Shown: positions 1,601 through 29,432 of the stretch, in pieces | How positions within the stretch are numbered: the first letter of the stretch is position 1 | How the letters are laid out: every line of letters starts with the position of its first letter | Source: an uncultured Ruminococcus sp. | GTDB taxonomy: Bacteria > Bacillota > Clostridia > Oscillospirales > CAG-272 | Length of the DNA: 35,993 nt | Direction of reading: 5' to 3' | Assembly: GCA_964424525.1 (NCBI GenBank) | Contig: CAYRJG010000002.1 | Location: 1-35,993 of the forward strand | Notes under the pieces: generated by a model | Told to the model about the DNA's origin: nothing | Database searches by the model: none | The model's input: only the letters and a program-made list of their open reading frames with translations | Position numbers and translations under genes: made by a program

Positions 1601-1602
1601 GT

Positions 1603-2283: not shown

Positions 2284-2285
2284 AA

Positions 2286-4217: not shown

Positions 4218-4343
4218 TTGGCAAAAGCAGGGAATATCGCAGTTAGATGTCGCGAGCTTTATGATGCTCTCTGTGAAACAACTGCGATAGCATTACAGTA
4301 TAGACTAAATAAATTACGTATATGAAAAGAAAGGTTTACAAAA

Positions 4344-5516
4344 ATGGCAAATTACGATATAAATTTGGATGAAGCGTGCAAAAAATTCCGCAAAATTCTT
4401 GAAGAACAGCTTGTGCGCGTTGAGGATATGAAGGCCCAGGGAGATTTTGTAGATTACGCATCTCTTGATAAGCTTATAATTGGTGTTTGCGGTGGTGACG
4501 GTATTGGTCCGATTATCACAAAGGAAGCAGAAAGAGTTCTTCGCTTTATGCTTTCCGATCTCGTAGAAGCGGGTAAGGTTGAATTCAAAACCATTGACGG
4601 GCTCACTCTTGAAAACCGTATAGCTCATAATAAAGCTATTCCCGATGATGTAATGGCAGAGCTTAAGGCTTGTCACATCATTCTCAAAGGTCCTACCACC
4701 ACCCCCCAGAAGGGAAGCGGTATGCCTAATATTGAGTCGGCAAACGTTGCTATGCGTAAGGCACTTGACCTTTTTGCTAATGTTCGTCCCGTTAAAGTTC
4801 CGGAGGAAGGTATTAACTGGGTTATCTTCCGCGAAAATACCGAGGGTGGATACGCGGTTGGTTCGTCCGGATTTAATGTTACCGATGATCTCGCGGTAGA
4901 TTTTACCATTACCACCAAGCAGGGCTCGGACAGAATCGCCCGTCTTGCCTATGACTATGCAAGAAAGAACAATATGGGAAGAGTTTCTCTCGTAACCAAG
5001 GCAAATGTAATCAAAACAACCGACGGTAATTTCCTTGAGGATTGCCACAAGGTTGCAGAGCTTTATCCCGAAATCGTGACCGATGAGTGGTATGCCGATA
5101 TCATGACGGCGAAGCTCGTTGATAAGAAGCGCCGCCGCGATTTCAAGGTTCTTCTTCTCCCGAACCTCTACGGTGATATAATTTCGGATGAAGCGGCAGA
5201 GTTCCAGGGCGGAGTAGGTACTGCCGGATGCGCAAATATCGGCAAGAAATATGCAATGTTTGAGGCTATTCATGGCTCTGCACCGAGAATGGTCAATGAG
5301 GGCAGAGCTATATACGCGGATCCCTGCTCGATGCTCCGCGCGTCCGTAATGCTTCTCTCTCATATAGGACTCCAGGATAGAGCCGACAGGCTTGAGCGCG
5401 CTCTTGATATATGCTCCTTTGAGGAAAAGAAGCTTGTAATTACGGGTAGATCAACAGGTGCGACCTGTGAGGACTTCGGTGATTACGTAATGGAAACCAT
5501 CAAGAAGCTTTCTTGA
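4344..5516 (+). CDS. icd: Isocitrate dehydrogenase (isocitrate/isopropylmalate dehydrogenase family)
   Basis: 390 aa with the family motifs ANVRPVK and NLYGDIISDEAA. It is the last gene of the citrate synthase-aconitase cluster. Confidence 0.8.
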   Translation: MANYDINLDEACKKFRKILEEQLVRVEDMKAQGDFVDYASLDKLIIGVCGGDGIGPIITKEAERVLRFMLSDLVEAGKVEFKTIDGLTLENRIAHNKAIPDDVMAELKACHIILKGPTTTPQKGSGMPNIESANVAMRKALDLFANVRPVKVPEEGINWVIFRENTEGGYAVGSSGFNVTDDLAVDFTITTKQGSDRIARLAYDYARKNNMGRVSLVTKANVIKTTDGNFLEDCHKVAELYPEIVTDEWYADIMTAKLVDKKRRRDFKVLLLPNLYGDIISDEAAEFQGGVGTAGCANIGKKYAMFEAIHGSAPRMVNEGRAIYADPCSMLRASVMLLSHIGLQDRADRLERALDICSFEEKKLVITGRSTGATCEDFGDYVMETIKKLS

Positions 5517-12900: not shown

Positions 12901-13201
12901 AGATTATGAGGAAGAGATTCCCGAGGAAGAGAAGCTTACCGAGGCTGAAAGAAAAGATAGCCGCTATATGATTCTTGCTCTCGGCTCATATATCCGCGAA
13001 GCAGTTAATGTTCAGATACCCGGCGTTGAAGAGGCTGTTGAAATATTCGACGCTGAATTTACCGAATACGCACAACAAGTTGAAATGATTAATTCCGATA
13101 TCGAAGATGCAACCGGTGTTGCACTTGCAGCAAGAACAAATGTTCTCGGCTCCACTTCTCTCGCCGGTGTAGCAGCGATTATCGGTACAAGCGCTAATTA
13201 A
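9971..13201 (+). CDS. Large secreted protein of unknown function: signal peptide, LamG/ConA-like module and a long acidic helical region
   Basis: 1076 aa with an AAAGGAGA RBS and an N-terminal signal peptide (MKHLKKILVALMVLCLLVSAAVMVISA/EG). A beta-rich segment ends in VSFDNYQEYQG, resembling the LamG-like module of the next gene. The remainder is strongly E/D/A/Y-rich. I see no LPXTG, SLH or lipobox. Confidence 0.6.
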   Translation: MKHLKKILVALMVLCLLVSAAVMVISAEGGTVSGLRTLYERVENYSDGVGKSEQLARAYAYLAENPIDPTEEGYAELLAEMQTKSVEVAGMLYTAIPTDQAGNKTGSPLDWLTSLNAVYAHFEACPPADDTAGYAEMLAQLDQDNVSSIEELHRLSLDEATTALMARHYLVSAFEQMEYKPLPEANADVVTNCKNAAFAKAQALYAEYEAAIPAPDAEDTDENYMKRINTAGTLVYFLGEVDLTGVEGASELTAKANAAKRDSDADRVERMEKLDSVADFASYAWTENSKFINFDDGSKFTSHNHNATHYNEVRTDSTGNKYFTLVFGTEATHLYTEPTATTDEMGLVRSMDLMFSNDFYSLPFQTHQSGNADIPTIFQFTGDRKGSIKLEVKRGTTYKGDTAALTDLVVPNVWFNLIMTFNPETLTGEVYINYVKVLDVTYKDTHKFLGLRMGANTTNQEVSFDNYQEYQGTQFRIFDKFEKMNDEEKFKFYVDYFTDDSYNPTNRNAAYLKARELISIIPDTDEIQEYKERYAACDYEEDIRKPAMALNLESIKEMVAELPAIEDITSETRVEVANKLDEIDKFIADNNELINRADNSEGGYLEQVAKLNAARDAISRIVAAEDFVTALSKFKRATSYASMSKHAATADAIYKEAGYSKQENIDFVKNDPVILAFELTLNGEEILPEDEDNYVTAFEYYLTFVDSIAERVKFENSKRIIDCVNFITSLEGYEATEEFWSENIDYISKYVTIIRNLVYSRDVVVANNFDLEYEGVVEALETFYAIDAYCYEVLQQEHIALLEEQLDAFLTTDAYIERVGICTYLAGYIAESELVVYIEYNEQSEEYEFIYNTALVDIVAAEVEDEADEIRTLIYRYLMYNSELEAQQEDYAAVLEANTAYFIDTVKVLTSVTSYAEKREIADLATTYYYGMNVDSEDAAEAIAVYNEIVAELNDDEFVATSFLLATMVLEVLNSYEDYEEEIPEEEKLTEAERKDSRYMILALGSYIREAVNVQIPGVEEAVEIFDAEFTEYAQQVEMINSDIEDATGVALAARTNVLGSTSLAGVAAIIGTSAN

Positions 13202-13215
13202 GGGAGGTATATATA

Positions 13216-16200
13216 ATGAAGAAAAGTTTTTTAAGAATTATTTCTCTGCTTCTCACGATTGCCTCTCTTGTGTCGATGTTTGCAATCTTTGCATGGGCAG
13301 ATGATGAACAGAACAATGATGACATCATGACAGGCGAATCTGTGGAAAATGATGAATCCGAAGAGATTATCACAGAGGATATCTCGGGAATTGAAATCTT
13401 ATATGAGAGAGATTTCGAAGAGGGATGGGAAGTCGATAACGGCTTCACGCTTACTACCAACGGACATAAGATGTTCGTTGACTATGAAGAACTCAGCGAT
13501 TATTCCTACAACTACTTTGCACGTTTTGAAGCAACCGCAAATGTTTCTGAAGGTAAAGCGTCTTTGGCATTCGGTGCTCGCGTTGCAAGAGAAAAATCCA
13601 CCATCATCTCCTTCTCTGTGAAGGCAGATGATGCAGCGTCCTTCTCGTCTGCAATTATGTATATGCAGACAGGTGGTAAAGTTACCAGAAATATACTCTT
13701 TATCTCGGATAAAAAGCTCTATGCTTTCTCAGTTGGAAAGGATAATTTACTTGCAGACCTTTCCGATAACGAATGGGTAGATGTTACCATGGTATTTGAC
13801 TGGTCTACTCCCACATCTTACGTAGCAAGAGCTTACGTTGGCGAGGATTTTGATGTTGCGTCACCTGATGTATCTCTTACGCAGACTGTCGGTACTATGA
13901 CTGACGGTTCTCCGAAGACTGATACGGGTATTGCAACCTACACTATCTCTATTCCCAGTGCAGGAAACGATAAGTCAGCTAAGGTTCAGGACGGTATGAG
14001 CTTCTGCCTTGATAATCTTCAGGTTTATCAGGGTGTTGCAAATCCCGTTGACCGCGAAGTTATTGCGGAAAAAGGTCCCGGTCTTAACATAGACCCGCTT
14101 GTTGCCAAGACTGTTGAAATTAAAGAAGGATCGGGCACAAAGACCGCAGAACAGCTTCTTAAAGAGGCTCTTTGCTTGAAGCTCGGTGTTCCTTACGCAC
14201 TTTTCAAGGATGAGAGAATTTCTATTGCGGATGATCAGCTTTCTGATAAAGATAAGTATTGCGTTCCTACAAAGATAAATGGCGAGATCGTTGTATCTCT
14301 TCAGCTTATTCTTGATTTTATCGGATATCCTTGTTTCATCCACCCCGACGGACAGTCATTTGATATCACTACCGGTCTTAGCTCGACCTACATCACGGTC
14401 GGCAGAGATACCGCAAACGTTAATGGCGAGCTCGTAGATCTTACACTTGCTCCCGGTTATCTTGAAGGTACCGATAAGCTCGTTATCGCTATGAACGATA
14501 TTCCCACTATATTCTCCGGTTGGCTTGTTACCTACGACGAAATGGGTCTTATCATAATGTATGAAGATACCACAGATGGCGAAGGCGGAGAGCTTATAAC
14601 CAGAGAGAATGATCTTGACACCATGCTTACCATGATGAAGAGATTCGTATTTGACACTATTACTACCGACGAGGACGGTAATGATCTTGCCGCAAACGAA
14701 GCTTACACTGCAAACGGTAAGGAAGTTTACAATGCTGTTCTTTCCAATACCAATTTCAGTCATCCTTACATTTACGCAAATCAGAATGATTTTGATACAC
14801 TTAAGGATAGCTTCGGTGGTGAGGATGCAAAGCTTAATTCTTATATCCAGACTATCGTAGATACCGCAAAGGGTTATTACGATGATATGGCAGAACTTGA
14901 CGGTGATAATAATTACAGCCAGATCAAGGAGGGTAAGGAGCCCGTTAACGTTTACAATGACGGTCTTCGTCCTACCGGTCCTAATGATACTACTGTAAAT
15001 GATACCGAAAATGCTTATAGTGACAGAGGTGACCTCTTCGAGGTTGAGGCTGTTACCGAAAAGCTTGTTTACCTTGCGTTTGCATACCAAGTAACCGGTG
15101 ATGTTAATTATGCAAAACTTGCATACGATATGTCACTTGTAATCGGTGATTGGCTCCACTGGGGTCCCGGTTATATGGTTAACTGTGCTACTGCAACCGC
15201 TAATTTCGCAGTTGCCTATGACTGGCTTTACAACATCTATTTTGAGCTTTACGGTCAGGATGGAGTAGATGCTCTTGCAGCTATCATTTACAATAAGGGT
15301 ATTATCCACGGTTACAACGCTTCCGCAGGAATCGCTTGCGAATTCGCAAGACCTTCCGGAACGGGTGATCACTATATCACTCGTACAGACAGCTGGAACG
15401 CAACTTGTGCTTCCGGTATGATTATCGGTTCTCTTGCTATCATGGAAAATGAGCAGTACAGAGAAACCACAGATTACCTTATTGGTAACAACCTTATTAA
15501 CCTTATGAACTACGGTCTTGATCAGTATGCTCCCGACGGTTCTTATATTGAATCTGCTACCTATTGGTCAATCGGAACAAATGGCTTGATGAAGCTCATT
15601 ATGGCTCTTGATTCTGCAGCAGGCAAGGACTTTGGTCTTAAGGATACTTGGGGTATCGATTCTACCTTCTACTATGCAATCCAGATTGAGAATTCCGACG
15701 GTGACGAATGGAATTATCACGAGGACGGCGTAGGTAGCATCAAGGACGGTACTGCTCTTGGAGTAGATACCCAGATGTTCAACTTTGCAGGATATATCTT
15801 TGGTGATACCAAACTCTTTGAGGTGCGCGAGGCGCAGATTGAAAAGGGCAAGGCTGTATCCATATTCGATATTCTCTTCTATCCCGGTGAGTATGAGCCT
15901 TCCGATGTAGAGCTTGCGCTTGACTACGAGATGCAGGGAATCGACGGATTCGTTTCCAGATCCGACTGGGAAGAAGGCGGACTCTATGTAGGTATTATGG
16001 GTGGTGTTAACGCATACTCGCCTTATACCACTAAGGACACCGGTGACGATCAGTTTGGTCAGCTTGACTCCGGTAATTTTGTATACGCTAACAATGGTAC
16101 TACTTGGTTTATGGATCTTGGTAGTGACAACTACGGTGCATATAACTATTTCGGAAGCTATAGATTCCGTTATTACAGAAATAGTGCGGAAGGTCAGAAC

Positions 16201-17127
16201 GTTCTGTTCTTTACCTCTCAGCAGACAGCTCTTCCCAACGGTATGGATCCCAATGGCGAAGGTAAGCTTATTGAGTCTTATATCGATGAGGGCGGAGAAG
16301 GAAGCTACGCTATTATAGACAACTCGAATGTTTATGGCTCTTATGTTCTCTCCGCAAAGCGCGGTATGCTTCTCTTCAATGATAGAAGCACAGTAGTTAT
16401 TCAGGACGAAATTTCTATGAATAACTCCTTCGAGGACGTTGTATGGGTAGCACACACTGCTCATAGAATCGTTATCGATGCTACCGGAAGAACTGCTTAC
16501 CTTATCAGTGAAGACCAGTGGGGCTTCCCGATCAGCACTCTTCGTGTTACTCTTGTTTCTGCTTTGAGCTCTTTGAAGTTTGAGGCACTTGATGCAACCA
16601 CTCCTATTCTTAAGGACACTGTTAAAAATGATTCTAACGAAATCGCACGTGACGGTATCAATAAGCTCGTAGTACGCGCTAACGGTGTGCTTGGTCTTAA
16701 TATGGCGGTTGTTATCGAAGAGGTCGAGAATGAGCAGGATTCCAAGGCGGTTGCTTACGAGTGGACCAATATGGATAACTGGGTAAATGTATTCTCTGCT
16801 GAAATCGTTGATGACGGTCTTGTAAGACGTGGCAAGGCAGTAAGAGCTGATATAGTTGACGAAACTCTTACCGCAGAGGTTATTTTCGATTCGGATTATT
16901 CATTTGAGAAGAGTTGCCAGGATTTCTACACCAGCCTTACAAATGTTGCTTATACTCTTAAGACCTTCAGCCCCGATACTTTCGGTCCTACCGACCTTGC
17001 TCTTCTTGAGGCTTATGAGGATTTCCAGGAGTATGAGGAAGAATTCGATGCTTACGCAGATTACGTAAACGAATGCATGGATGACGTGCTTAAGGCGATG
17101 AATGTATTCGTAGGTATTGAAGACTAA
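13216..17127 (+). CDS. Large secreted multidomain protein: LamG-like, copper-amine-oxidase-N-like and heparinase II/III-like (alpha/alpha toroid plus beta-sandwich) domains, with an acidic C-terminal tail
   Basis: 1303 aa with a GGGAGG RBS and a signal peptide ending FAWA/DD. The LamG-like module ends in FCLDNLQVYQG. A repeated NGE(I/L)V pattern (PTKINGEIVV ... ANVNGELVDL) looks like a Cu_amine_oxidN1-type domain. The motifs LAFAYQVTGDVNYAKLAYD, DWLHWGPGY, WNATCASG and YAPDGSYIESATYW, then GQLDSGNFVY...WFMDLGSDNYG, resemble heparinase II/III / alginate-lyase-like proteins. Confidence 0.6.
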   Translation: MKKSFLRIISLLLTIASLVSMFAIFAWADDEQNNDDIMTGESVENDESEEIITEDISGIEILYERDFEEGWEVDNGFTLTTNGHKMFVDYEELSDYSYNYFARFEATANVSEGKASLAFGARVAREKSTIISFSVKADDAASFSSAIMYMQTGGKVTRNILFISDKKLYAFSVGKDNLLADLSDNEWVDVTMVFDWSTPTSYVARAYVGEDFDVASPDVSLTQTVGTMTDGSPKTDTGIATYTISIPSAGNDKSAKVQDGMSFCLDNLQVYQGVANPVDREVIAEKGPGLNIDPLVAKTVEIKEGSGTKTAEQLLKEALCLKLGVPYALFKDERISIADDQLSDKDKYCVPTKINGEIVVSLQLILDFIGYPCFIHPDGQSFDITTGLSSTYITVGRDTANVNGELVDLTLAPGYLEGTDKLVIAMNDIPTIFSGWLVTYDEMGLIIMYEDTTDGEGGELITRENDLDTMLTMMKRFVFDTITTDEDGNDLAANEAYTANGKEVYNAVLSNTNFSHPYIYANQNDFDTLKDSFGGEDAKLNSYIQTIVDTAKGYYDDMAELDGDNNYSQIKEGKEPVNVYNDGLRPTGPNDTTVNDTENAYSDRGDLFEVEAVTEKLVYLAFAYQVTGDVNYAKLAYDMSLVIGDWLHWGPGYMVNCATATANFAVAYDWLYNIYFELYGQDGVDALAAIIYNKGIIHGYNASAGIACEFARPSGTGDHYITRTDSWNATCASGMIIGSLAIMENEQYRETTDYLIGNNLINLMNYGLDQYAPDGSYIESATYWSIGTNGLMKLIMALDSAAGKDFGLKDTWGIDSTFYYAIQIENSDGDEWNYHEDGVGSIKDGTALGVDTQMFNFAGYIFGDTKLFEVREAQIEKGKAVSIFDILFYPGEYEPSDVELALDYEMQGIDGFVSRSDWEEGGLYVGIMGGVNAYSPYTTKDTGDDQFGQLDSGNFVYANNGTTWFMDLGSDNYGAYNYFGSYRFRYYRNSAEGQNVLFFTSQQTALPNGMDPNGEGKLIESYIDEGGEGSYAIIDNSNVYGSYVLSAKRGMLLFNDRSTVVIQDEISMNNSFEDVVWVAHTAHRIVIDATGRTAYLISEDQWGFPISTLRVTLVSALSSLKFEALDATTPILKDTVKNDSNEIARDGINKLVVRANGVLGLNMAVVIEEVENEQDSKAVAYEWTNMDNWVNVFSAEIVDDGLVRRGKAVRADIVDETLTAEVIFDSDYSFEKSCQDFYTSLTNVAYTLKTFSPDTFGPTDLALLEAYEDFQEYEEEFDAYADYVNECMDDVLKAMNVFVGIED

Positions 17128-18666: not shown

Positions 18667-18873
18667 TGTGGCGTTCCTTTCTGAGTTTGATTTTGAAGAT
18701 GCAATATTATATAAACAAAAACATCCTAGGATAATTTTATCATATAGAGCTAAAAAAGTCAAGGATAATAACCAAAATATTACAATTATTAGCAGTTTAA
18801 ATATGGATTTATTTATGTTGTAAAACAAAAAAGAATGAGGTGCTTACTCTCAATAAATAAAGGAGATATAAAT

Positions 18874-19746
18874 ATGGTAGAGGACAGAACAACTATCTAT
18901 GAAAGCTTGCCTGTGCATATAACTAAGGAAATCAAAAGAATTGCGGCATCAAGACTCGGAGGAATCTCATCAATAGGCGAAATAAGACTCTGCGCAGGTC
19001 CGGCTTCGTCCATACTGTCGCACGGAGAAAGAATCTTTCTTGGCTTGCAAGTCACCACCGAAGAGATAGAGGCGGTTGTAAACAAGCTTTGCGAGGGAGC
19101 GCTTTACGCGCATCGAGAAACTCTTGCTGATGGATACATAAGCATTCGCGGTGGCGTGCGTGTAGGCGTTTGCGGTATGGCGAGATATGATTCGGAAAGA
19201 TTAATCGGTGTTACCGATGTCAGTTCCTTAATTTTTCGTATTCCATCGGGGGAATGCTCGGTGTCGGATGAGCTTTTTGATGCCTGGCGGAAAACCAAGA
19301 AAGGGATGCTGATTTATGCAAAGCCGGGAGGTGGAAAGACTACCGCGTTGCGCTCTCTCGTTTCGAGAATAGCACAAGGGCGCGAAGGCGAGCGCGTTGC
19401 GGTTGTGGACGAGCGATGTGAGTTTTCCGAAGAGGAATGTAGGCGGCTCGGAGTTCATCTTTTGCGAGGCTACAAACGCGGTTTGGGAATGGAGATAGCA
19501 CTTCGGACGGTAGCACCCGATGTAATTGCAGTAGATGAAATAGGCTCTAAAATGGAATCCGAAGGTATGCTCCAGTCGCTTTCATCGGGAGTGAAAATAC
19601 TCGCAACTGCCCATGCATCAAGTCGTGAAGGTCTTCTCTCAAGAGTCACGGCTGTACCGTTTTTTGAACGTGGAATTTTTGATATTTTGGTCGGAATATT
19701 TAACACGGATGGCACTTATCGGGTAGAAGTTGAGGAAATGCTATGA
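18874..19746 (+). CDS. spoIIIAA: Stage III sporulation protein AA (ATPase)
   Basis: AAAGGAG RBS before the ATG at 18874, Walker A KPGGGKTT and Walker B VIAVDEIG. It is the first gene of an eight-gene cluster with the canonical spoIIIA order. Confidence 0.9.
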   Translation: MVEDRTTIYESLPVHITKEIKRIAASRLGGISSIGEIRLCAGPASSILSHGERIFLGLQVTTEEIEAVVNKLCEGALYAHRETLADGYISIRGGVRVGVCGMARYDSERLIGVTDVSSLIFRIPSGECSVSDELFDAWRKTKKGMLIYAKPGGGKTTALRSLVSRIAQGREGERVAVVDERCEFSEEECRRLGVHLLRGYKRGLGMEIALRTVAPDVIAVDEIGSKMESEGMLQSLSSGVKILATAHASSREGLLSRVTAVPFFERGIFDILVGIFNTDGTYRVEVEEML

Positions 19747-20482: not shown

Positions 20483-20859
20483 TGGGGAATGCGATAACGC
20501 TCGGTATTGTAGCCGCAGTTTCGGCATTTTTGCTTCGCGGATTCGGGTGGAAGGGTGTACCCGTGTTCATTTCTGTGACGTTCATAGGCATAATTTTGCT
20601 TGCCGCACCCTACATATCGGAGATAGGTAATTTTATAAAATCTACCGCAGGGGAATACGGGGTGCTCGATGCTGCGAGTGCCATTTTGAAGGTAGTAGGT
20701 CTTGGATACCTTACAGGTATATCCGCGGACGTATGCCGAGAGCTTGAGTCCGGGATGCTGGCGAGTGCCGTTGTACTTCTTGGAAGAATAGAAATTATTG
20801 CCGTGGTCCTGCCTTTTTTTGAAGAAATCCTGAGGCTTGGAGGTGAGCTGATAGGATGA
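20482..20859 (+). CDS. spoIIIAD: Stage III sporulation protein AD
   Basis: About 125-aa polytopic membrane protein. Its ATG at 20482 overlaps the spoIIIAC stop (TGATG). An alternative in-frame TTG lies at 20479. Confidence 0.85.
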   Translation: MGNAITLGIVAAVSAFLLRGFGWKGVPVFISVTFIGIILLAAPYISEIGNFIKSTAGEYGVLDAASAILKVVGLGYLTGISADVCRELESGMLASAVVLLGRIEIIAVVLPFFEEILRLGGELIG

Positions 20860-21956
20860 AAAGAAAAATTCTTTTTGTGTTGCTTTGCTGTGTAATATTA
20901 ATCTCTCTTTTTTCAATATCGGCATTTGCTGACGGAGAAGATGATTATGCAGATGGTCTTCTTAAGGATTTTAACGAAATTATTCCCATCGAAAGCGGTG
21001 TTACAACAGGCGAAGAACTGATGGCGGATGTAGGATTTGAAACCTTGTTTTCGGATATTATAGCCGTTGTAAGCGGAGAGTGGAGCAGTATATTGTCTTT
21101 TTTTCTGATGCTTATGGGATTTGCCGTAATAATGGCGGTAAGTGACGGAGTATACGTTTCGGACAATCCTTTGCTTCGAAAAAATGTCAGCGCGGCAGTA
21201 GCCGCGATAGCATCTGTTTCGATTTTTACCGCACTTTACGGACTTATCGGCACGGTCAGAGATAGTCTTGAATCGGTTGTTGATTTCTTTTCCTCTCTCG
21301 TTCCGATAGTAACGGCAATCAGTGCCTCATCCGGGGCTGTGGGCACGGCTTCCGTTCAAGCAGTGAATATGAATATTACCCTCGCTGTTATTCAAAAATT
21401 TTGCACGGGCGCCCTCTTGCCCCTCGTTTTTGCTCTTTTTTCGCTTGCTCTTGCATCATCGCTTGGGGAAGGGAGTACATCTTCGGTTGCAAAGGGGATA
21501 AAGAATGCTTTTATGTGGGGCATCGGTATAATTTGTACCGTTCTTGCCGCCGCCATAGCTCTTCAAACGCTTTTGGCATCCGCGAAGGATACCGCCGCAC
21601 TTCGGGCGGCAAGATATGCGGCGTCGGGAATGATTCCGATAGTCGGAACTTCAATCGCATCGGCTCTTACAACTCTTGCAAGCGGACTTGCTTTTGTTAA
21701 AAGCACGGTTGGCGTCGGTGCGATAGCGGTAATCATATCTCTTGCTTTGGTGCCGCTGGTTTCAATTTTGCTTTATCGATTGGCTTTTTCAATAACGATT
21801 ATTTTCCTCGAATTTCTCGGTTCGGAGGGGGGCGTGCGTTGTTTTTCAGCTTTTAGAACGGCTCTTGATGCGCTTTTGGCTGTGTATTCGATTTCGGTTC
21901 TTATATGTATCGTTCAATTAATTGTATTCATAAAAAGCGGGGTGAGTGGCGCGTGA
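20856..21956 (+). CDS. spoIIIAE: Stage III sporulation protein AE
   Basis: 366 aa with a signal-like N-terminus followed by multiple TM helices. It is start/stop coupled to spoIIIAD. Confidence 0.9.
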   Translation: MKRKILFVLLCCVILISLFSISAFADGEDDYADGLLKDFNEIIPIESGVTTGEELMADVGFETLFSDIIAVVSGEWSSILSFFLMLMGFAVIMAVSDGVYVSDNPLLRKNVSAAVAAIASVSIFTALYGLIGTVRDSLESVVDFFSSLVPIVTAISASSGAVGTASVQAVNMNITLAVIQKFCTGALLPLVFALFSLALASSLGEGSTSSVAKGIKNAFMWGIGIICTVLAAAIALQTLLASAKDTAALRAARYAASGMIPIVGTSIASALTTLASGLAFVKSTVGVGAIAVIISLALVPLVSILLYRLAFSITIIFLEFLGSEGGVRCFSAFRTALDALLAVYSISVLICIVQLIVFIKSGVSGA

Positions 21957-22414
21957 GTGAATACATAATGAGTGTGGTTGCCGTCAGTCTGCTTTCCGCA
22001 CTTGCGGCATTTTTCTCTTACGGCGGCGCATCGGAGCGCGCGGTTCGTGCGGCAATAGCTATGATAATGATATATACGGTTTGCGTTCCCGCTGTAAGAC
22101 TTGTATCCGATTTTTCACCCGAGGATTTATCTGTTGAGGTTTCTGTTAATAAAGAAATTGCCGAAGGTGAATATCTGAATGTCGCAAAAAAAGCCTTTTG
22201 CGAGGGAGTGCGTTCATTTGTTGCCGATAGCTTTCATATAAATAAAGATGAAATTGAGGTAAATGCTGTCGATTTCGATTTTGAAAAAATGTGTGCGAAA
22301 AAAATTAAAATTAAACTGTGCGGTCGCTCGGCTATGGCGGATACCGACAGAATTCGGGATGCCGTAATCGATGCGGGGCTTGGTGATTGTGAGGTGAATA
22401 TTAAAATTGGTTGA
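21953..22414 (+). CDS. spoIIIAF: Stage III sporulation protein AF
   Basis: Two N-terminal TM helices and a soluble C-terminal domain. The GTG at 21953 overlaps the spoIIIAE stop (GTGA). The ATG at 21968 is an alternative start, and the ATG at 21905 in the track lies inside spoIIIAE. Confidence 0.75.
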   Translation: MSEYIMSVVAVSLLSALAAFFSYGGASERAVRAAIAMIMIYTVCVPAVRLVSDFSPEDLSVEVSVNKEIAEGEYLNVAKKAFCEGVRSFVADSFHINKDEIEVNAVDFDFEKMCAKKIKIKLCGRSAMADTDRIRDAVIDAGLGDCEVNIKIG

Positions 22415-22838
22415 TTCGTTTTTATCGCGTTTTAAAGGAAAATTCAAAGAAAAAAAGAAATTTTATACTGCTATTCTTCTTATAGGATTAGGATTAATGC
22501 TTATTGCTTTTTCCGCCGCTTCTTCGTCGGATTCCGGTGATGGATCGTCGGTGACGCTGGAGCAGTATAAAGCTAATCTGGAAGATGAGCTGGGTGAACT
22601 TTGCTCGTCAGTTCGCGGTGTAGGGAAGTGCAAGGTGATGATAACCTTCGAGCGCGGAGAGGAAAATACTTATAAAGGCTCGGCTTTGATAGAAAGTAAG
22701 CCACCGCGAGTTATGGGCGTGAGCGTTATATGCCGCGGGGCGGATTCCGATGAGGTAAAGCGCGAGCTTACAACTATGATATCGGCTCTTTTCGATATCG
22801 GAAGCAACAGAATTTCGATTCTGAAATTAAATTCATAA
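22407..22838 (+). CDS. spoIIIAG: Stage III sporulation protein AG
   Basis: 143 aa with a TTG start overlapping the spoIIIAF stop and a single TM helix. It has the conserved C-terminal ring-forming region (VRGVGKCKVMITFE...VMGVSVICRGA...ISALFDIGSNRISI). Confidence 0.85.
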   Translation: MVDSFLSRFKGKFKEKKKFYTAILLIGLGLMLIAFSAASSSDSGDGSSVTLEQYKANLEDELGELCSSVRGVGKCKVMITFERGEENTYKGSALIESKPPRVMGVSVICRGADSDEVKRELTTMISALFDIGSNRISILKLNS

Positions 22839-22985: not shown

Positions 22986-23540
22986 ATGAAAACAGAAAAA
23001 ATCAAACAGTTCTTTTCATCCAGAAGCGGAAAAAGCGTCGTAGTCGTTGCGGCGGTGCTTCTTATCGGGCTTGCGGTATATCTTAACTACCGTTGGTTCT
23101 ACGATCCTCTTGAATCTCTCGGATATGGAGAGAATAATATGGAGAATAATTTCTCCGACAGTGAGCAGACCGGAGCAGAAACCTCCGATGGCGAAAACAA
23201 TTACTTTACTTCGACTGCGCTTTCTCGTGAACAGTCCCGCGATGAGGCGATAGACGTTCTTAAGCTCGTTACCGAAAATGCTTCGGCAACCGAGGAGGCA
23301 AAGGCGGAGGCGGCTGCAAAGATTTCGAAGATCGCAGTGGATATGCAGAATGAGGCTAATATTGAAACTCTCGTTAAAGCGAAGGGCTTTGAAGAGTGCG
23401 TAGCAATAATAAGCGACGACGCTGTAAGCGTTATAGTTAAGGCAGAGAGCCTTCAGGCAAATCAGGCAGCGCAGATTCTTTCCATAGTATACGAAACCAC
23501 CGGAGTTGATCCGAGAAACATAAGTATAATAAATAAATAA
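22986..23540 (+). CDS. spoIIIAH: Stage III sporulation protein AH
   Basis: 184 aa with an AAGGAGA RBS, an N-terminal TM helix and a C-terminal YscJ/FliF-like region (EANIETLVKAKGFEECVAIISDDAVSVIVKAESL). Confidence 0.85.
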   Translation: MKTEKIKQFFSSRSGKSVVVVAAVLLIGLAVYLNYRWFYDPLESLGYGENNMENNFSDSEQTGAETSDGENNYFTSTALSREQSRDEAIDVLKLVTENASATEEAKAEAAAKISKIAVDMQNEANIETLVKAKGFEECVAIISDDAVSVIVKAESLQANQAAQILSIVYETTGVDPRNISIINK

Positions 23541-23709
23541 TGATAAGATATTTCGACCAAAAGGGGGAGAGCTACGGCTTTCTCTCTTTTTTGTTGTTTT
23601 TCGTTTTTGGGTATTCGTTTTTTGCGTTTTTCTTAAATTTTGGTTATTTTCAATAAAATCCGCTGATAAAATTTGTATGTTCGGTGAGCATTAAGAGTAA
23701 AGTTTGCTA

Positions 23710-23738
23710 TTGACTTTTATGAATTAAAAAGATATAAT
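23710..23738 (+). promoter_or_regulatory. Sigma-A-type promoter (TTGACT, 17 nt spacer, TATAAT) for the repeat-lipoprotein cluster
   Basis: TTGACT at 23710-23715, a 17-nt spacer and TATAAT at 23733-23738, about 50 nt upstream of the ATG at 23787. Confidence 0.5.
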
Positions 23739-23786: not shown

Positions 23787-25697
23787 ATGATGAAAAAGAT
23801 AGTTTGCTTGATTCTGGCTCTTGTCTGCGCTTTTGCACTCTTCGCTTGTGACGAGTGCACCGAGCACATTGACATAGCAGATGAGAACGGAGTGTGCGAC
23901 ATCTGTGGCACTAAGTACACGGATTGTGTGCACGCTGATGAGGACAAGGATGCGAGATGCGACAAGTGCAACGCAAAAGTTAACTGCGCAGAGTGCGTAG
24001 ATGCCGATGAGAACGGTGCTTGTGACGTATGCGCTAAAGAGGTTCCTTGCACGACTTGTAAGGACGCTGACAGGAACGGACTTTGCGACGTTTGCGGAGA
24101 AGCTGTTGCTTGCGAAACCTGCGTGGATAACGACAAGAACGCAAGATGCGATGCTTGCGGCAAAGCAGTTGCTTGCGAAACCTGCTCTGATGGGGACAAT
24201 AACAATTACTGCGATGTATGCGGTAAGTTCGTTCCTTGCGAGACCTGCGTAGATAATGACAAGAACGCTAAATGCGATGCTTGCGGTAAGCCCGTTGCTT
24301 GTGAGAGTTGCGTTGATGCAGATAAGAATACTTTCTGCGATGTATGCGGTAAGCCTGTTGCTTGCGAAGCTTGCGAGGATAACGATAAGAACTCCTACTG
24401 CGACGTATGCGGTAAGGAAGTTAAGTGCGATAAGCATGTTGACACCGATAAGAACGCATATTGCGATGCTTGCGGAACTGCAATCCCCTGCACAACCTGC
24501 AAGGATGCAGACAAGAATGCATTCTGTGACGTTTGCGGTAAGCCTGTTGAGTGCAACCCCTGTGTTGACGCTGACAGAACCGGTTACTGCGATGTATGCG
24601 GTAAGGAAGTTCCTTGTAACCCCTGCGTAGATGCGGATAAGAATTCCGTATGTGACGTATGTGGGAAAGACGTTAAAAACAAGGCGTGTGATGTTTGCGT
24701 AGATGCAGATAAGAACTTCCGTTGTGAGGTTTGCGGCAACATAATCGTTTGTGGAACTTGCGCAGATGAAGATAAGAACGGCAAGTGCGATACTTGCGGT
24801 GCTGACATTCCCTGTGATGCTTGTGTTGATGCAGATAAGAATACATACTGTGACGTATGCGGCAAGGGTCTTGCTTGCGAGGTTTGCGTAGATGCAGATA
24901 AGAATTCCTACTGTGACGTTTGCGGTAAGCCTGTTGCTTGCGAAGCTTGCGTAGATGCGGATAAGAATGCATACTGTGACGTTTGCGGTGAATTTATTGC
25001 TTGCGATCCCTGCATAAACCTCAACGGAGATTTCCTCTGTGATGTATGCGGTAGACCGCTTGAGTATAAGTGCTTGAAGCATAAGGATGAAAACGGAAAC
25101 GGTATATGTGAGATATGCGGTGAGCCGGTTAAGGACGTTATTGATGGCGAGGATGCAGAATTCTTTAATATGATAGCTTCCTCCACTCCGAACAAGATAA
25201 TCACTCAGTCCACTATTAACTATGCCGTTCTCGGTGAGATTTATAACGGTCGTTACGTTACCGTTCTTACAGATGGCGGATTTGAGTATGAGTATTACTA
25301 CGAGAAAGCAAGTGAACTTGATTTTGACGGTATGGCAGATTCTTACAAGCAGATCGTAGAGGGCGTAGTTTATTATGCCGGTGGTCGTTATTCTACTGAC
25401 GGCGAAACTTGGTTTGACGTAGCTCCTAATGTTCAGTATCTTTCTATGACATTTAATTTCAATGCCGATACCATTGGCGAGTATAAACTTGTCAGCGGAA
25501 ATAAAAACCTTCAAGCAACTATCGATAGAGAAGCGGTTAAGGCTATCTTCGGTCTTGATATAGATGCAGATACCTTTACTCTTGAGGTTAAGACCAACGG
25601 AAAGTATCTCAGTAACGTAGTGCTTGCGTACACTACTTCTAGCGGAGCAAGTGTAGAGATCAGTACCTCTTACACCTACGAGCCCGTAGCAGGTTGA
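23787..25697 (+). CDS. Uncharacterised lipoprotein with about 20 tandem 21-aa Cys/Asp-rich repeats and a C-terminal globular domain (paralog 1 of 3)
   Basis: 636 aa with a signal peptide and lipobox-like ALFAC at residues 17-21. The unit C-x2-C-V-D-A-D-K-N-x-x-C-D-V-C-G-K-x-V-x repeats every 21 aa up to about residue 448, followed by a non-repetitive tail of about 188 aa. Confidence 0.75.
   Translation: MMKKIVCLILALVCAFALFACDECTEHIDIADENGVCDICGTKYTDCVHADEDKDARCDKCNAKVNCAECVDADENGACDVCAKEVPCTTCKDADRNGLCDVCGEAVACETCVDNDKNARCDACGKAVACETCSDGDNNNYCDVCGKFVPCETCVDNDKNAKCDACGKPVACESCVDADKNTFCDVCGKPVACEACEDNDKNSYCDVCGKEVKCDKHVDTDKNAYCDACGTAIPCTTCKDADKNAFCDVCGKPVECNPCVDADRTGYCDVCGKEVPCNPCVDADKNSVCDVCGKDVKNKACDVCVDADKNFRCEVCGNIIVCGTCADEDKNGKCDTCGADIPCDACVDADKNTYCDVCGKGLACEVCVDADKNSYCDVCGKPVACEACVDADKNAYCDVCGEFIACDPCINLNGDFLCDVCGRPLEYKCLKHKDENGNGICEICGEPVKDVIDGEDAEFFNMIASSTPNKIITQSTINYAVLGEIYNGRYVTVLTDGGFEYEYYYEKASELDFDGMADSYKQIVEGVVYYAGGRYSTDGETWFDVAPNVQYLSMTFNFNADTIGEYKLVSGNKNLQATIDREAVKAIFGLDIDADTFTLEVKTNGKYLSNVVLAYTTSSGASVEISTSYTYEPVAG
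23856..25130 (+). repeat. In-frame 63-nt (21-codon) imperfect tandem repeat array, about 20 units
   Basis: Counted by hand from the translation. An exact 31-nt duplicate, TGCGGTAAGCCTGTTGCTTGCGAAGCTTGCG, occurs at 24345-24375 and 24921-24951. Confidence 0.85.
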
Positions 25698-25743
25698 TTC
25701 GGGATTTCGTAAAACAAGCCAAGGTTTGAAAGGAAAAAACGTA

Positions 25744-27507
25744 ATGAAGAAGATTTTAATGATGATTCTCGCGCTTGCGCTTGCTTGCTCGGCGATGTTC
25801 GTCTTTGCTTCCTGCGATGATGAACCGGTTGCGTGTACTCACGCAGATGCCGACAAGGATCATAAGTGCGACAGTTGTGGAGAAGATTTTACAGAAACCT
25901 GCATAGAGCATGTCGATGAAAATGCAGACGGAAAATGTGATTACTGCGAAGCTGACGTTGAAGTTGAAGCGGAGTGTGAGCATGTTGACAATAACAAGGA
26001 TGCCAAGTGCGATAAGTGCGGTGAGGCGGTTGCATGCGAAACCTGTGTTGATGAAAATCCGCTTGATGCAAAGTGTGACGTTTGCGGCAAAACTGTTAAT
26101 TGTGAAGCACACAGGGATATTGCTCCTATGGATGCAAAATGTGATGTTTGCGGCAAGGCAATAGCTTGCAAGACTCACGCAGATGAAAACAAGGATGCAA
26201 AATGTGACATCTGCGGCAAGACCGTTGAGTGCGATGTTCACAGTGACAGAGATAGAAATGCAGTCTGTGATGTCTGCGGCGAGGAACTCGCTTGCGAGGT
26301 TTGCGTAGATGCAGATAAGGATCAGAAATGTGATGTTTGCGGTGGCGAAGTTGCTTGCGAAAATCATACCGATAAGAATCTTGACGGTAAGTGCGACAAG
26401 TGCGGTGCAGATGTTGAGATTTCCGAAGATCCCAAGGATCCCTCCGATAAACAGCCCGAAGCACCCGACGACTCAGGTTGTGAGCACGTAGACGGAAATC
26501 TTGATAAGAAATGTGACGAGTGCGGAAAAAATTATATCGGTGCTTGTGTAATTCATTTTGACAGAAATAAGGATTTCGTGTGCGATTACTGTGACGAAGA
26601 GCTTGATAAAGAATGTAAAGTTCATATCGACGTTAACGGTGACTTTAAGTGCGATAACTGTGATATAAAGGTTGAATGTAATCATGCGGATGTTAATCCT
26701 GCTGACGGAAGATGCGATTTCTGTTCTGCTGAGGTTGAGTGTAAGGATTGTATAGATGCAGACGGAGATGCAAAGTGTGACGTATGCGGTGGAATCGTTG
26801 AATGCGAGGTTTGCGTGGACTCTAACGGTGACAACAAGTGCGACAAGTGTGAAGCAAGACTTGATGCAGACCGTGGAATAGAGGCTACTCTTGAAGCATA
26901 TAAGAACAGTACTCCGACTAAAGTTGTGACTAATACTACTATTGATTTCCTTGATCTTGATACAGAGAGAGAGGCAACATATACTCTTACTACAAACAGA
27001 GTTCTTATTACAGGTTCTATTGACGGCAAGATTGCAACTGTTATGACCACCGTAATTGATAAAATCAGATACGTATCTGACGGTGCAACCGATGTTGTTC
27101 AGGATTTCTATGAGTCTATTGTTTCTACCGAAGAGTTCCTTCAGGGTTCCGGTTCACGTACCGACGGAAAGCGTTGGAAGGCAGACGGACTTAACTTTGC
27201 TCCCGCTGCAAGAAGAATTACTCCCAATCTTGATGCTGAAATTCTTAAGAGAGTAAAGTATTACGAGGCTCTTTATAACAATACACTTACATTTACTGTT
27301 GCTGCTGAAGATGTTGATGAAGTTTTTGGTGATGAGAAAATCGTTACTGATAGCGATGTTCGCGTTACTATCGTTAATAACGGAGCGGCTGTAACTTCTA
27401 TAACCATTGAATACTCAAGAGAGAGCGATGACCTCTATCCTGCACAAAGAATAGTTATGACCACCGAATACTCTTACGATATTCAGAAGGTTGAGCTTCT
27501 TTATTAA
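25744..27507 (+). CDS. Uncharacterised lipoprotein with about 15 tandem Cys/His/Asp-rich repeats and a C-terminal globular domain (paralog 2 of 3)
   Basis: The ATG at 25744 gives MKKILMMILALALACSAMFVFASC (lipobox-like FASC). The track ORF starts at an upstream TTG at 25726. The repeats have the form C-x(1,2)-[H/C]-x-D-x(3)-[D/N]-x-x-C-D-x-C-G, with one acidic/Pro linker, followed by a non-repetitive tail of about 214 aa. Confidence 0.75.
   Translation: MKKILMMILALALACSAMFVFASCDDEPVACTHADADKDHKCDSCGEDFTETCIEHVDENADGKCDYCEADVEVEAECEHVDNNKDAKCDKCGEAVACETCVDENPLDAKCDVCGKTVNCEAHRDIAPMDAKCDVCGKAIACKTHADENKDAKCDICGKTVECDVHSDRDRNAVCDVCGEELACEVCVDADKDQKCDVCGGEVACENHTDKNLDGKCDKCGADVEISEDPKDPSDKQPEAPDDSGCEHVDGNLDKKCDECGKNYIGACVIHFDRNKDFVCDYCDEELDKECKVHIDVNGDFKCDNCDIKVECNHADVNPADGRCDFCSAEVECKDCIDADGDAKCDVCGGIVECEVCVDSNGDNKCDKCEARLDADRGIEATLEAYKNSTPTKVVTNTTIDFLDLDTEREATYTLTTNRVLITGSIDGKIATVMTTVIDKIRYVSDGATDVVQDFYESIVSTEEFLQGSGSRTDGKRWKADGLNFAPAARRITPNLDAEILKRVKYYEALYNNTLTFTVAAEDVDEVFGDEKIVTDSDVRVTIVNNGAAVTSITIEYSRESDDLYPAQRIVMTTEYSYDIQKVELLY
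25834..26862 (+). repeat. In-frame tandem repeat array of about 63 nt per unit, about 15 units, interrupted by one linker
   Basis: Repeat units were counted from the translation. The linker ISEDPKDPSDKQPEAPDDSG lies between units 9 and 10. Confidence 0.8.
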
Positions 27508-27530
27508 TCAAAGGATAGGAGAAAGAAAAT

Positions 27531-29363
27531 ATGAAAAAGATTTTAGCTATCATTTTGGCTTTGTCCTGCGCCTTTGCATTGTTTGCATGCGGTAAAGAAG
27601 CGTGCGCGGTTTGCGTGGATGAAGATAAGAACTGTTTGTGCGATGAATGTGAGCGAATCATCGATTGCGTAGATGAAGATGCTGACGAGAAATGCGATGT
27701 ATGCGGCAAGGATGTTCAGCCTGCCCCCGAATGCACCGAGCACAAGGATGAAAACAAAAATGACCGTTGCGATATCTGCGACTTGAACCTCAAGACCGGT
27801 GGATGCAAAGCTCATTTTGACATGGATAAAGACGGCAAGTGCGATACCTGTGAAGCTGATATAGCTTGTAACGTTCATTATGATGAAGACAAAGACGGAA
27901 AATGTGATGTTTGTGATGCTACTGTGAAGTGCACCGCGCACATTGATACAGTTAAGGACGGAAAATGTGACGTTTGTGAAACCGTTATTGCTTGTACTGT
28001 TCATTACGATGCAAACAAGGATGGTAAATGTGACGTTTGTGCTTCTGCTGTAAAATGCACCGAGCACGTTGACGTTGATAAGAACGGACGTTGTGATGTT
28101 TGTACAGAAAATGTAGTTTGCTACATTCACCTTGATGAAAACAAAAACGGTAAGTGTGATGCTTGCGGCGAGAGCGTAATTTGCACCGAGCATTATGATG
28201 CAAATAAGGACAGTGTATGTGACATTTGTTCCGATAAGCTTCCTTGCACCAATCATTCTGATACCGATAAAAATCAGTTATGCGATAAATGCGGTGCGGC
28301 TGTAGAGTGCAACCACTTTGACGGAATCAAGGATGCCGTGTGTGATTTCTGTGGAGAGGCACTTCCTTGTATCCACGTTGATGCTGATAAAAACGCTGTT
28401 TGCGACGTTTGTAAGAAGGCTATCCCTTGTGCTATTCACGCTGACGTAGACGATGATGGTAAGTGCGATGTATGCGGCAACGATTACAGATGTGTAGTAT
28501 GCGTTGATGTAAACAAGGATCTCAAGTGCGATTATTGCGGTGGCGAAATTGAGTGTGCTCACTTCGATGGCAATAAAGATGCTAAATGCGATATATGCAA
28601 AGAGGCGGTTGCATGCAAAGAGCACTTTGATCTTGTAAAAGATAACAAGTGCGATGTTTGTGGTGAAAATGTTCCTTGTAACGTTCATATTGACGTTGTA
28701 AAAGACGGTAAGTGTGATATCTGCGGTACCGAAGTTCCTCTTATTTGTGTTGATCACGTTGATGCAAATTCGGATTCACTTTGCGATATTTGTAAGATAG
28801 ATATGAGCAAGCTTTCCGATAATAATGCAAGTGAAACATCCGGTTACACCAATTATGAGATTCTCGCAGAGGATTTCATCAATGCTATGGAAAACGCTGA
28901 TTGCAGCTCCGTAACCGTTGAGGTTTCGAAGGGCAACGATACATACGCATTCTATAACACTGTTTATAATGCTGACGGCTCTTATGTAATGTATTACGTT
29001 TATCCTACCATTTCCGAAGATATCTTTGCTGAAAATGAAGTTGAATTCGTAGAAGGCGAATTGACCTTCGATAAGGATGGCAACCTCATCTCCGGTGATG
29101 CTGATGCTGCTTCTACTGTGGGCGCAAACGGTGTTCGCGCAGATCTGTCGAGTAAGAAGATCGAGAATTTCAAGATCGATGGAAACGGCCTTGCAATCTT
29201 TGTAGCAGCTGAAGATTCTGCTGAAATTCTTGGTGTAGAGCTTGCAAGTGATGCTACTGTCGTAGTATTTATCGATGATGCAGGTGCAATTGCTTCTCTT
29301 TCACTCAATTATGTAGATGCTGAAGGTGATACCGTTATCATCATCTGCTCCTACGAAAATTAA
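27531..29363 (+). CDS. Uncharacterised lipoprotein with about 19 tandem Cys/His/Asp-rich repeats and a C-terminal globular domain (paralog 3 of 3)
   Basis: 610 aa with a GGAGAAAG-type RBS and a signal peptide with ALFAC at residues 16-20. The repeats are mostly C-x2-H-x-D-x-x-K-D-G-K-C-D-V-C, followed by a non-repetitive tail of about 185 aa. Confidence 0.75.
   Translation: MKKILAIILALSCAFALFACGKEACAVCVDEDKNCLCDECERIIDCVDEDADEKCDVCGKDVQPAPECTEHKDENKNDRCDICDLNLKTGGCKAHFDMDKDGKCDTCEADIACNVHYDEDKDGKCDVCDATVKCTAHIDTVKDGKCDVCETVIACTVHYDANKDGKCDVCASAVKCTEHVDVDKNGRCDVCTENVVCYIHLDENKNGKCDACGESVICTEHYDANKDSVCDICSDKLPCTNHSDTDKNQLCDKCGAAVECNHFDGIKDAVCDFCGEALPCIHVDADKNAVCDVCKKAIPCAIHADVDDDGKCDVCGNDYRCVVCVDVNKDLKCDYCGGEIECAHFDGNKDAKCDICKEAVACKEHFDLVKDNKCDVCGENVPCNVHIDVVKDGKCDICGTEVPLICVDHVDANSDSLCDICKIDMSKLSDNNASETSGYTNYEILAEDFINAMENADCSSVTVEVSKGNDTYAFYNTVYNADGSYVMYYVYPTISEDIFAENEVEFVEGELTFDKDGNLISGDADAASTVGANGVRADLSSKKIENFKIDGNGLAIFVAAEDSAEILGVELASDATVVVFIDDAGAIASLSLNYVDAEGDTVIIICSYEN
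27603..28805 (+). repeat. In-frame tandem repeat array of about 63 nt per unit, about 19 units
   Basis: Repeat units were counted from the translation. Confidence 0.8.
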
Positions 29364-29385: not shown

Positions 29386-29432
29386 CAAAAAATCAGCCCG
29401 ATTTCAATTTGAAATCGGGCTGATGCTTTTTT
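29386..29432. terminator. Bidirectional rho-independent terminator after the lipoprotein cluster
   Basis: 14-bp stem TCAGCCCGATTTCA (29392-29405) / TGAAATCGGGCTGA (29409-29422), flanked by an A-run upstream and TGCTTTTTTT downstream. Confidence 0.85.

Follow-up and report, generated by a model that had tools for sequence, protein, structure and literature searches.

Among the closest described counterparts of the proteins analysed here are the Periscope proteins and other bacterial tandem stalks (Rib, SasG G5-E, SHIRT; PMC9704523), in which a single-chain array of repeats lies between an anchor and a functional domain. The same arrangement is found in three adjacent genes, here called A, B and C, of an uncultured Ruminococcus sp.; they lie in contig CAYRJG010000002.1 of assembly GCA_964424525.1, of which positions 1 to 35,993, termed the window, were analysed. 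Each gene encodes a putative lipoprotein in which an array of 21-residue, Cys-rich units leads into a C-terminal head domain. Like that of Periscope proteins, the repeat number differs between related organisms, ranging from 0 to 20 across lineages; however, Periscope proteins are recognized by highly identical repeats that differ in number even among closely related strains, whereas the unit DNA identity here is 71-86% and the counts are those of different lineages. Known stalk domains are 50-165 amino acids (aa) long (PMC9704523), in contrast to the 19-21 aa of the units described here, which are presumably stabilized by metal rather than by a hydrophobic core and which adjoin a lipid or transmembrane (TM) segment as anchor rather than a sortase link.

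Two groups of small metal-binding modules also resemble the unit. Zinc ribbons and knuckles, such as rubredoxin-like CxxC...CxxCG sites and the tandem knuckles of LIM and RING modules, share with it two knuckles that together give four Cys/His residues, with Cys and His interchangeable, and the best weak matches of the unit are all zinc modules, none of them significant. Zinc-finger-like sites are normally intracellular, and arrays of Cys/His metal sites are an unusual feature outside the cytoplasm. The repeat, unlike zinc ribbons and knuckles, is exported rather than cytoplasmic, is strictly tandem with up to ~40 units per protein, and has a conserved acidic D-x-D-x-N-G-x-x-D loop that bridges its two knuckles. 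This loop, D6-x-[D/N]8-x-[D/N]10-G11-x-x-D14, resembles positions 1, 3, 5, 6 and 9 of the DxDxDG calcium loops of EF-hand, dockerin and thrombospondin type 3 repeats, with positions 1, 3, 5 and 9 conserved at 94-98% and the Gly of position 6 at only 43%; in the unit it sits between two Cys knuckles.

The head is predicted to resemble the LolA/LolB/LprG superfamily, in that an N-terminal helix precedes a curved antiparallel sheet. The fold of LolA, LolB and LprG binds acyl chains or lipoglycans. GerS of C. difficile has the same fold and regulates a partner enzyme (bioRxiv 10.1101/2025.01.13.632879). Like LprG and GerS, A, B and C appear to be lipoproteins of a single-membrane bacterium; unlike the LolA/LprG family, the heads form a conserved paralogue triplet that in this lineage is carried on a long Cys-rich stalk. 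The tandem-repeat stalk, the zinc-knuckle-like unit and the LolA-like head are each known in kind, and the triplet in this lineage has gained exceptionally long stalks of 15-20 units. On balance, A, B and C are probably three lipoproteins with metal-stabilized stalks of variable length that carry hydrophobic-ligand-binding, LolA-like heads.

Three lipoprotein genes and a repeat of variable length

The three genes and their parts are as follows.

23787-25697, + strand: gene A, a 636-aa lipoprotein precursor with 79 Cys; signal peptide and lipobox at residues 1-21
23859-25133, + strand: gene A repeat array, ~20 units of 21 aa, nearly all of CCCC type
25134-25694, + strand: gene A C-terminal domain, 187 aa, 0 Cys; predicted LolA/LprG-like half-barrel
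25744-27507, + strand: gene B, a 587-aa lipoprotein precursor from ATG, 51 Cys
25831-26865, + strand: gene B repeat array, 15 units, CHCC and CCCC types mixed
26866-27504, + strand: gene B C-terminal domain, 213 aa, 0 Cys; paralogous to the A domain
27531-29363, + strand: gene C, a 610-aa lipoprotein precursor, 64 Cys
27603-28808, + strand: gene C repeat array, 19 units, CHCC type in most
28809-29360, + strand: gene C C-terminal domain, 184 aa, 2 Cys; third paralogue of the domain family

A signal peptide and lipobox had been assigned to each protein in a first-pass annotation made from the sequence alone, and a PROSITE-style lipoprotein pattern fits all three N-termini (...ALFAC, ...VFASC and ...ALFAC; matched MMKKIVCLILALVCAFALFAC, MKKILMMILALALACSAMFVFASC and MKKILAIILALSCAFALFAC). 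The lipobox motif is kept in orthologues of A, B and C, and we infer that the three proteins are lipidated and anchored in the membrane. The open reading frame (ORF) of gene B reaches upstream to a TTG at 25726 (593 aa), and the ATG at 25744 was preferred as its start because it is preceded by a GAAAGGA ribosome-binding site and because the gene-caller protein P0006 begins there. Units were counted using C-D/E-x-C knuckles preceded by an acidic loop as anchors, which gave 22 in A, 15 in B and 19 in C; ~2 of the 22 anchors in A sit in split or partial units, so that A is taken to hold ~20 units and the three proteins ~54, in agreement with the numbers first proposed (about 20, 15 and 19). A 25-aa linker at 26404-26478 (GADVEISEDPKDPSDKQPEAPDDSG), acidic and rich in Pro, breaks the array of gene B and leaves its stalk in two blocks.

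The number of units varies widely between orthologous clusters. In the order A/B/C, it is 20/15/19 in the window, 8/9/8 in L001, 12/6/11 in L013 and 0/8/9 in another cluster. The A-type protein of L004 and L006 has no units and instead possesses a low-complexity linker of ~50 aa, and L037 and L039 encode the full A-B-C triplet as lipoproteins of 194-225 aa without any repeats, each 33-36% identical to the corresponding C-terminal domain of the window. Since the same triplet occurs with fewer units, with none in its first gene or with none at all, the repeat can be dispensed with; judging from these sequence comparisons, it is a stalk or spacer, differing in length from lineage to lineage, that is inserted between the conserved domain and its anchor. 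At a rough guess of 1.5-2 nm per unit, 15-20 units would extend over 25-40 nm, which is in the range of a Gram-positive wall. In L037, the repeat-free triplet is followed by a fourth lipoprotein (2656-4011) with collagen-like G-x-x repeats, in which a trypsin-like protease region was noted by eye.

A position beside the anchor is also common in the wider family. A survey of the 237 proteins with at least two units, using a crude adjacency test, placed the array directly after the lipobox in 128, after a signal peptide or TM segment in 19 and just before a C-terminal TM segment in 18. In giant proteins of 1700-4300 aa, the array precedes a TM segment, a cell-wall-binding-like tail or an amphipathic C-terminal tail.

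An exhaustive search of 1.84 billion representative proteins with a profile of three consecutive units recovered 886 proteins at E <= 1e-3, 317 at E <= 1e-10 and 51 at E <= 1e-30. The GTDB species representatives that bear the repeat are all metagenome-assembled genomes (MAGs) of uncultured Clostridia, including Eubacteriales, Faecousia, Oscillospiraceae, Christensenellaceae, Candidatus Coproplasma and a Ruminococcus sp., and the repeat-bearing MAGs were obtained from goat, sheep, roe deer, rabbit and human gut. The repeat is fused to exported modules such as Flg_new, BspA-type LRR, NlpC/P60, Big_3, SLH and CW_binding_2, and further partners are a phosphodiesterase with Laminin_G_3, a metallophosphatase with 5'-nucleotidase, SNase, peptidase M3, GDSL lipase, and cohesin and dockerin. 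The repeat is a generic spacer module and is not special to this cluster. The first-pass proposal of a dedicated system built around the repeat must therefore be given up, given that the triplet occurs with 8-9 units, with a repeat-free first gene or with no repeats at all and that the module is present in ~886 proteins. The survey of homologues and neighbourhoods that the same annotation had recommended thus yielded both this large set of relatives and a cluster whose gene order is conserved. An assembly artefact, which it had named as a possible ground for doubt, was ruled out, as independent assemblies hold orthologous clusters with intact reading frames.

The repeat unit and its putative metal ligands

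The unit of the window has the consensus C1-x-x-[C/H]4-x-D6-x-[D/N]8-x-[D/N]10-G11-x-C13-D14-x-C16-G17-x-x-[V/I]20-x. The C1/C4 type makes up almost all of protein A and the C1/H4 type most of C, with a mixture in B; His is accordingly rare in the repeat region of A (4 residues) and frequent in those of B (12) and C (16), and Asp and Asn together make up ~23% of the repeat regions. Tandem Repeats Finder reported periods of 63 and 126 nucleotides (nt) with 71-86% matches, which indicates that the units have diverged considerably and that some arose as two-unit duplications. No further copies of the motif were found in the rest of the window. Family-wide, the majority form is 19 aa long, C-x-D-x-D-x-D-H-x-C-D-x-C-G, and the 21-aa form of the window is the second commonest; instead of the first Cys of the window form, the 19-aa form (P0011, P0013, P0085, P0137 and others) has a His that lies two residues N-terminal to the knuckle.

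Exported proteins of Firmicutes usually avoid Cys, and in anaerobic Firmicutes they show no preference for even numbers of Cys, in contrast to the remaining groups in the comparison (PMC2823432). By this standard, the Cys load of A, B and C is extreme, as had been claimed at first, although the proportion in the repeat regions is 17.6% in A, 14.2% in B and 14.9% in C, so that every sixth or seventh residue is Cys, not every fifth as originally stated.

To the extent of the libraries searched, the unit is unclassified, and the initial impression that it belongs to no named family held throughout Pfam, NCBIfam, the PDB, Foldseek and the literature, none of which returned a significant match. For the three proteins, nothing scored above the cutoff in Pfam or NCBIfam. 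The best Pfam score, to the RING model zf-C3HC4_3, was 26.2 bits against a cutoff of 27 and occurred in protein A alone; this match and one to LptM (E 0.13) were discounted as reflections of Cys spacing and of the signal peptide, respectively. Dockerin, SLH, cell-wall-binding repeat, RHS and myxococcal Cys-rich repeat models from Pfam and NCBIfam gave no match to A, B or C at E <= 1, and the Pfam profiles EF-hand, Dockerin_1, TSP_3 and Ldl_recept_a did not match the three proteins. PF27309, a precomputed annotation on two relatives, was rejected as a dedicated family, as it is MJ0753_N and its matches are 'faint' only. Searches of the PDB with the sequence of protein A and with the repeat profile gave no significant match, the weak ones being zinc modules only (CBL RING, E 0.0075; LIM, E 0.067). 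A Foldseek search of the PDB with a six-unit AlphaFold2 (AF2) model found no structural neighbour (best E 1.4), and its weak matches were again zinc modules, from LIM, RBR and IFT-A. No description of the repeat was found in the full-text literature, and sources beyond reach could hold one.

The ligand content of the unit is highly regular. Among 2022 inter-knuckle segments from 259 proteins, 82% hold exactly two Cys/His residues besides the CDxC knuckle; the pair consists of one Cys and one His in 65% of the segments, of two His (C2H2 type) in 10% and of two Cys in 7%. With the two of the knuckle, a unit accordingly presents four soft ligands. One of the inter-knuckle pair is always the equivalent of residue 4, and its partner is residue 1 or, alternatively, a His in position 11. 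In 625 units of the type found in the window, position 4 is occupied by His (73%) or Cys (27%). At the start of the array, at least two Cys/His residues lie within the 13 residues before the first knuckle in 91% of cases; at its end, the 13 residues after the last knuckle contain no Cys/His in 52% and one in 28%. An array therefore begins with a two-ligand half and ends with a CDxC half, which places the putative metal site within one unit. The number of Cys is odd in most units, namely three, and one position accepts either Cys or His, suggesting a tetrahedral Zn-type site; a model of disulfides was rejected on these same two grounds. The acidic loop is conserved as strongly as the Cys residues, with D6 present in 97%, D/N8 in 94%, D/N10 in 98% and D14 in 97% of units. 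Metal binding, as first suggested for the window, appears to be the most economical reading of these ligand statistics, and we propose that each unit may bind one Zn-type and one Ca-type ion.

Structure prediction, one of the follow-up steps initially suggested, gave a local fold for the units. AF2 models of the last five units of A have a pLDDT of 70-82 and one beta-bridge per unit, and a model of six units of C has a pLDDT of 79. The bridge joins residues 12 and 19 of the unit around the C13-D-x-C16-G turn, and a single beta-bridge round a CDxCG turn is the expected geometry of a knuckle hairpin.

Head domains, transcription unit and neighbouring genes

The related non-repeat domain of about 190 aa that had been reported at each C-terminus was recovered with lengths of 184-213 aa. 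The three domains are related but very divergent: by BLAST, A and B share 23.5% identity at E 1e-7, A and C match at E 0.13, and similarity between B and C is undetectable. With orthologues added (19 sequences), they can nevertheless be aligned over their whole length and share invariant Gly and Tyr. The heads of A, B and C are old paralogues. A word-indexed search with the C-terminal-domain profile recovered 8 proteins, a number that bounds the size of the family poorly, and a PDB profile search with the C-terminal-domain alignment returned nothing relevant.

The AF2 model of the C-terminal domain of A has a pLDDT of ~90 and consists of an N-terminal helix followed by ~10 strands and two short helices. 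Foldseek matched this head to M. tuberculosis LprG (3mh8; E 2.2e-5, probability 1.0) and also to LolA (8cgm, 2w7q, 8v1k), LolB (1iwm), RseB (2p4b) and a S. aureus protein (4egd) with probabilities of 0.98-1.0; E values for LprG, LolA, LolB and RseB range from 2e-5 to 4e-3. GerS was not among the top 50 structural matches of the A head. The heads are predicted from these models to be LolA/LprG-like half-barrels, a likeness that had previously gone unrecognized, and by analogy we lean towards the binding of a hydrophobic ligand over the regulation of a partner enzyme.

The order pfkB, spoIIIA operon, A-B-C and bPH_4 gene is kept in every long contig. PfkB is ~90% identical between loci, whereas the C-terminal domains are 25-54% identical; this contrast fits fast-evolving, exposed proteins, and the adjacency to spoIIIA may therefore be merely inherited. 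The signals that delimit the cluster are listed below.

23559-23590, + strand: SpoIIIA-end hairpin, 14-bp stem followed by a T run; terminator-like, closes the upstream spoIIIAA-AH operon
23710-23738, + strand: promoter-like site of sigma-A type, TTGACT-17-TATAAT, 11/12 consensus matches
29392-29424, bidirectional: intrinsic terminator, 15-bp stem with 7 G-C pairs; common to the convergent ygjV-like gene

The initial description of three closely spaced genes behind a promoter and before a terminator was borne out by the ORFs, the 11/12 promoter match and the 15-bp terminator stem. The hairpin at 23559-23590, which follows the gene assigned via Pfam to SpoIIIAH, marks the three-gene cluster as a transcription unit of its own. 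The genes are separated by 46 nt (A-B) and 23 nt (B-C), and no convincing + strand terminator was found between A, B and C. In an intergenic alignment of four loci (the window, L001, L004 and L009), both promoter hexamers and their flanks are invariant, whereas the surrounding sequence has diverged. We infer from these features that A, B and C form a separate operon under a housekeeping-type sigma factor, which does not imply sporulation control. A link to sporulation was considered, given that the cluster always lies 3' of spoIIIAH, and was rejected: a terminator precedes the cluster, whose own sigma-A-type promoter is invariant, and its other neighbours, pfkB and the bPH_4 gene, are conserved too, so that the adjacency is read as inherited gene order rather than co-regulation.

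An A/T-rich block (ATAAAA...AAATTT.GT...TT.GG) lies 5' of the -35 hexamer at 23640-23709. Part of it does not vary among the four aligned loci, and it could be an UP element or a regulator site; no obvious palindrome was seen in it by eye. Within the spoIIIA operon, SpoIIIAH (22986-23540) is 72-86% identical across loci, compared with 41-64% for SpoIIIAE (20856-21956) and 45-60% for SpoIIIAA (18835-19746), which is the reverse of expectation. Pfam recognized the rest of the operon but gave no match at E <= 1e-3 for the ORFs at 21905-22414 and 22407-22838, which occupy the places expected of spoIIIAF and spoIIIAG. Two adjacent large ORFs at 9971-13201 (1076 aa) and 13216-17127 (1303 aa) have signal-peptide-like N-termini, no Pfam match at E <= 1e-3 and no Cys repeats. 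A + strand run at 221-5516 encodes a HMGL-like synthase, a GntR/FCD regulator, an aconitase-family protein and an isocitrate/isopropylmalate dehydrogenase-family protein and is unrelated to the cluster; in L001 and L002, an Iso_dh gene is likewise present 3' of the cluster. No redox genes adjoin the cluster.

A proposed metal-clamped stalk and its alternatives

In the picture that we favour, the three genes would be expressed as a single operon, probably constitutively, and each protein would be held on the outer side of the cytoplasmic membrane by its lipidated Cys. From this anchor, 15-20 mini-domains of 21 aa, joined head to tail, would form a stalk that leads to a LolA/LprG-like head of ~190 aa at the far end, which would most likely bind a hydrophobic or lipidic ligand or a partner protein. 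Each mini-domain would hold a Zn-type ion between positions 1 and 4 (Cys/His) and the C13-D-x-C16 knuckle, and a Ca-type ion in the D6-x-[D/N]8-x-[D/N]10-G-x-C-D14 loop, so that the linker that is floppy in other lipoproteins would here be a string of metal-clamped beads. The number of units, 0 to 20 by lineage, presumably sets the distance of the head from the membrane or through the wall.

Several observations weigh against this picture. The ligand geometry was derived from sequence statistics only, and the Gly at loop position 6 is found in just 43% of units, a lower conservation than canonical DxDxDG loops show. Models of the repeat have a low pTM (0.41-0.55), so that any rigidity between units is tentative. 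The array was not placed beside an anchor in ~30% of repeat proteins by the crude test, many of these being fragments or giants. The match of the head to LprG is modest (target-normalized TM-score 0.47, rmsd 6.8 A), and LolA, LolA_like, LppX_LprAFG, MucB_RseB and similar Pfam models matched neither the three full proteins at E <= 1 nor the 19 C-terminal domains at E <= 10. A bolder version, which we hold to be rather unlikely, is that the unit is an undescribed, self-contained two-metal fold (Zn and Ca) that in strictly anaerobic gut Clostridia would substitute outside the cell for the disulfides and isopeptides of aerobes, with the arrays as rigid, wall-spanning rods, their length fixed by the number of units, and the LolA-like heads passing lipids or lipoglycans between the membrane and the surface.

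Other readings assign the repeat a function beyond that of a spacer. The very high density of Cys/His sites, the strong, conserved, housekeeping-type promoter and the variation of the ligand sets (CCCC, CHCC and C2H2) would suit a metallothionein-like store, buffer or scavenger at the surface, whose ~54 sites would capture Zn or other thiophilic metals. This is improbable, given that hundreds of exported enzymes and binding proteins of unrelated kinds contain the repeat as a spacer close to their anchor, that it is replaced by a plain linker or omitted in the same cluster, and that its fixed four-ligand count, spacing and acidic loop look structural, whereas metallothioneins have irregular clusters. 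We give a similarly small chance to the repeat itself being an adhesive or wall-polymer-binding module, through which proteins would be kept in the wall or attached to host glycans. It does lie outside the membrane, is rich in acidic residues and co-occurs with Flg_new, LRR_5 and Big_3, but the array is nearest the anchor, where adhesive tips are usually farthest from it; it accompanies the wall-binding domains SLH and CW_binding_2 rather than replacing them, and it is dispensable in orthologous clusters. The adhesive system suggested in the first pass thus finds no support, as nothing points to adhesion by the repeat itself.

The remaining alternatives concern the chemistry of the unit. A D-x-D-x-N-G-x-x-D loop followed by Cys resembles the Ca-binding, disulfide-knotted repeats of eukaryotes, and the units of protein A contain four Cys, an even number, as would be expected if disulfides and calcium alone, with no zinc, held the repeat together in the manner of thrombospondin type 3 or LDL-receptor class A repeats. 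Family-wide, however, most units have three Cys and one His, with His and Cys swapped at the same position, and neither TSP_3 nor Ldl_recept_a of Pfam matches; the hosts are strictly anaerobic gut Clostridia, and the exported proteins of anaerobic Firmicutes are not biased towards even numbers of Cys (PMC2823432), which leaves this reading very improbable. Least plausible, and in our view hardly credible, is an electron-conducting wire of rubredoxin-like iron units through the cell wall. CxxC...CxxCG knuckles are also the signature of rubredoxin and the sites would form a long linear series, but most units have His instead of Cys, the repeat is fused to hydrolases, adhesin-type repeats and LolA-like domains rather than to redox modules, and the cluster has no redox genes beside it.

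If the stalk is indeed clamped by metal, strict anaerobes would be shown to use Cys/His metal clamps outside the cell, and a very small, length-tunable block of 19-21 aa would be added to the known stalk domains of bacterial surfaces; the unit may also serve protein engineering as a compact metal-dependent spacer. The triplet of LolA-like lipoproteins beside spoIIIA is an uncharacterized envelope system, which invites comparison with LprG in lipid transport and with GerS in amidase activation. The same picture would provide a likely role for a module that is present in ~900 protein clusters of uncultured gut and rumen Clostridia.

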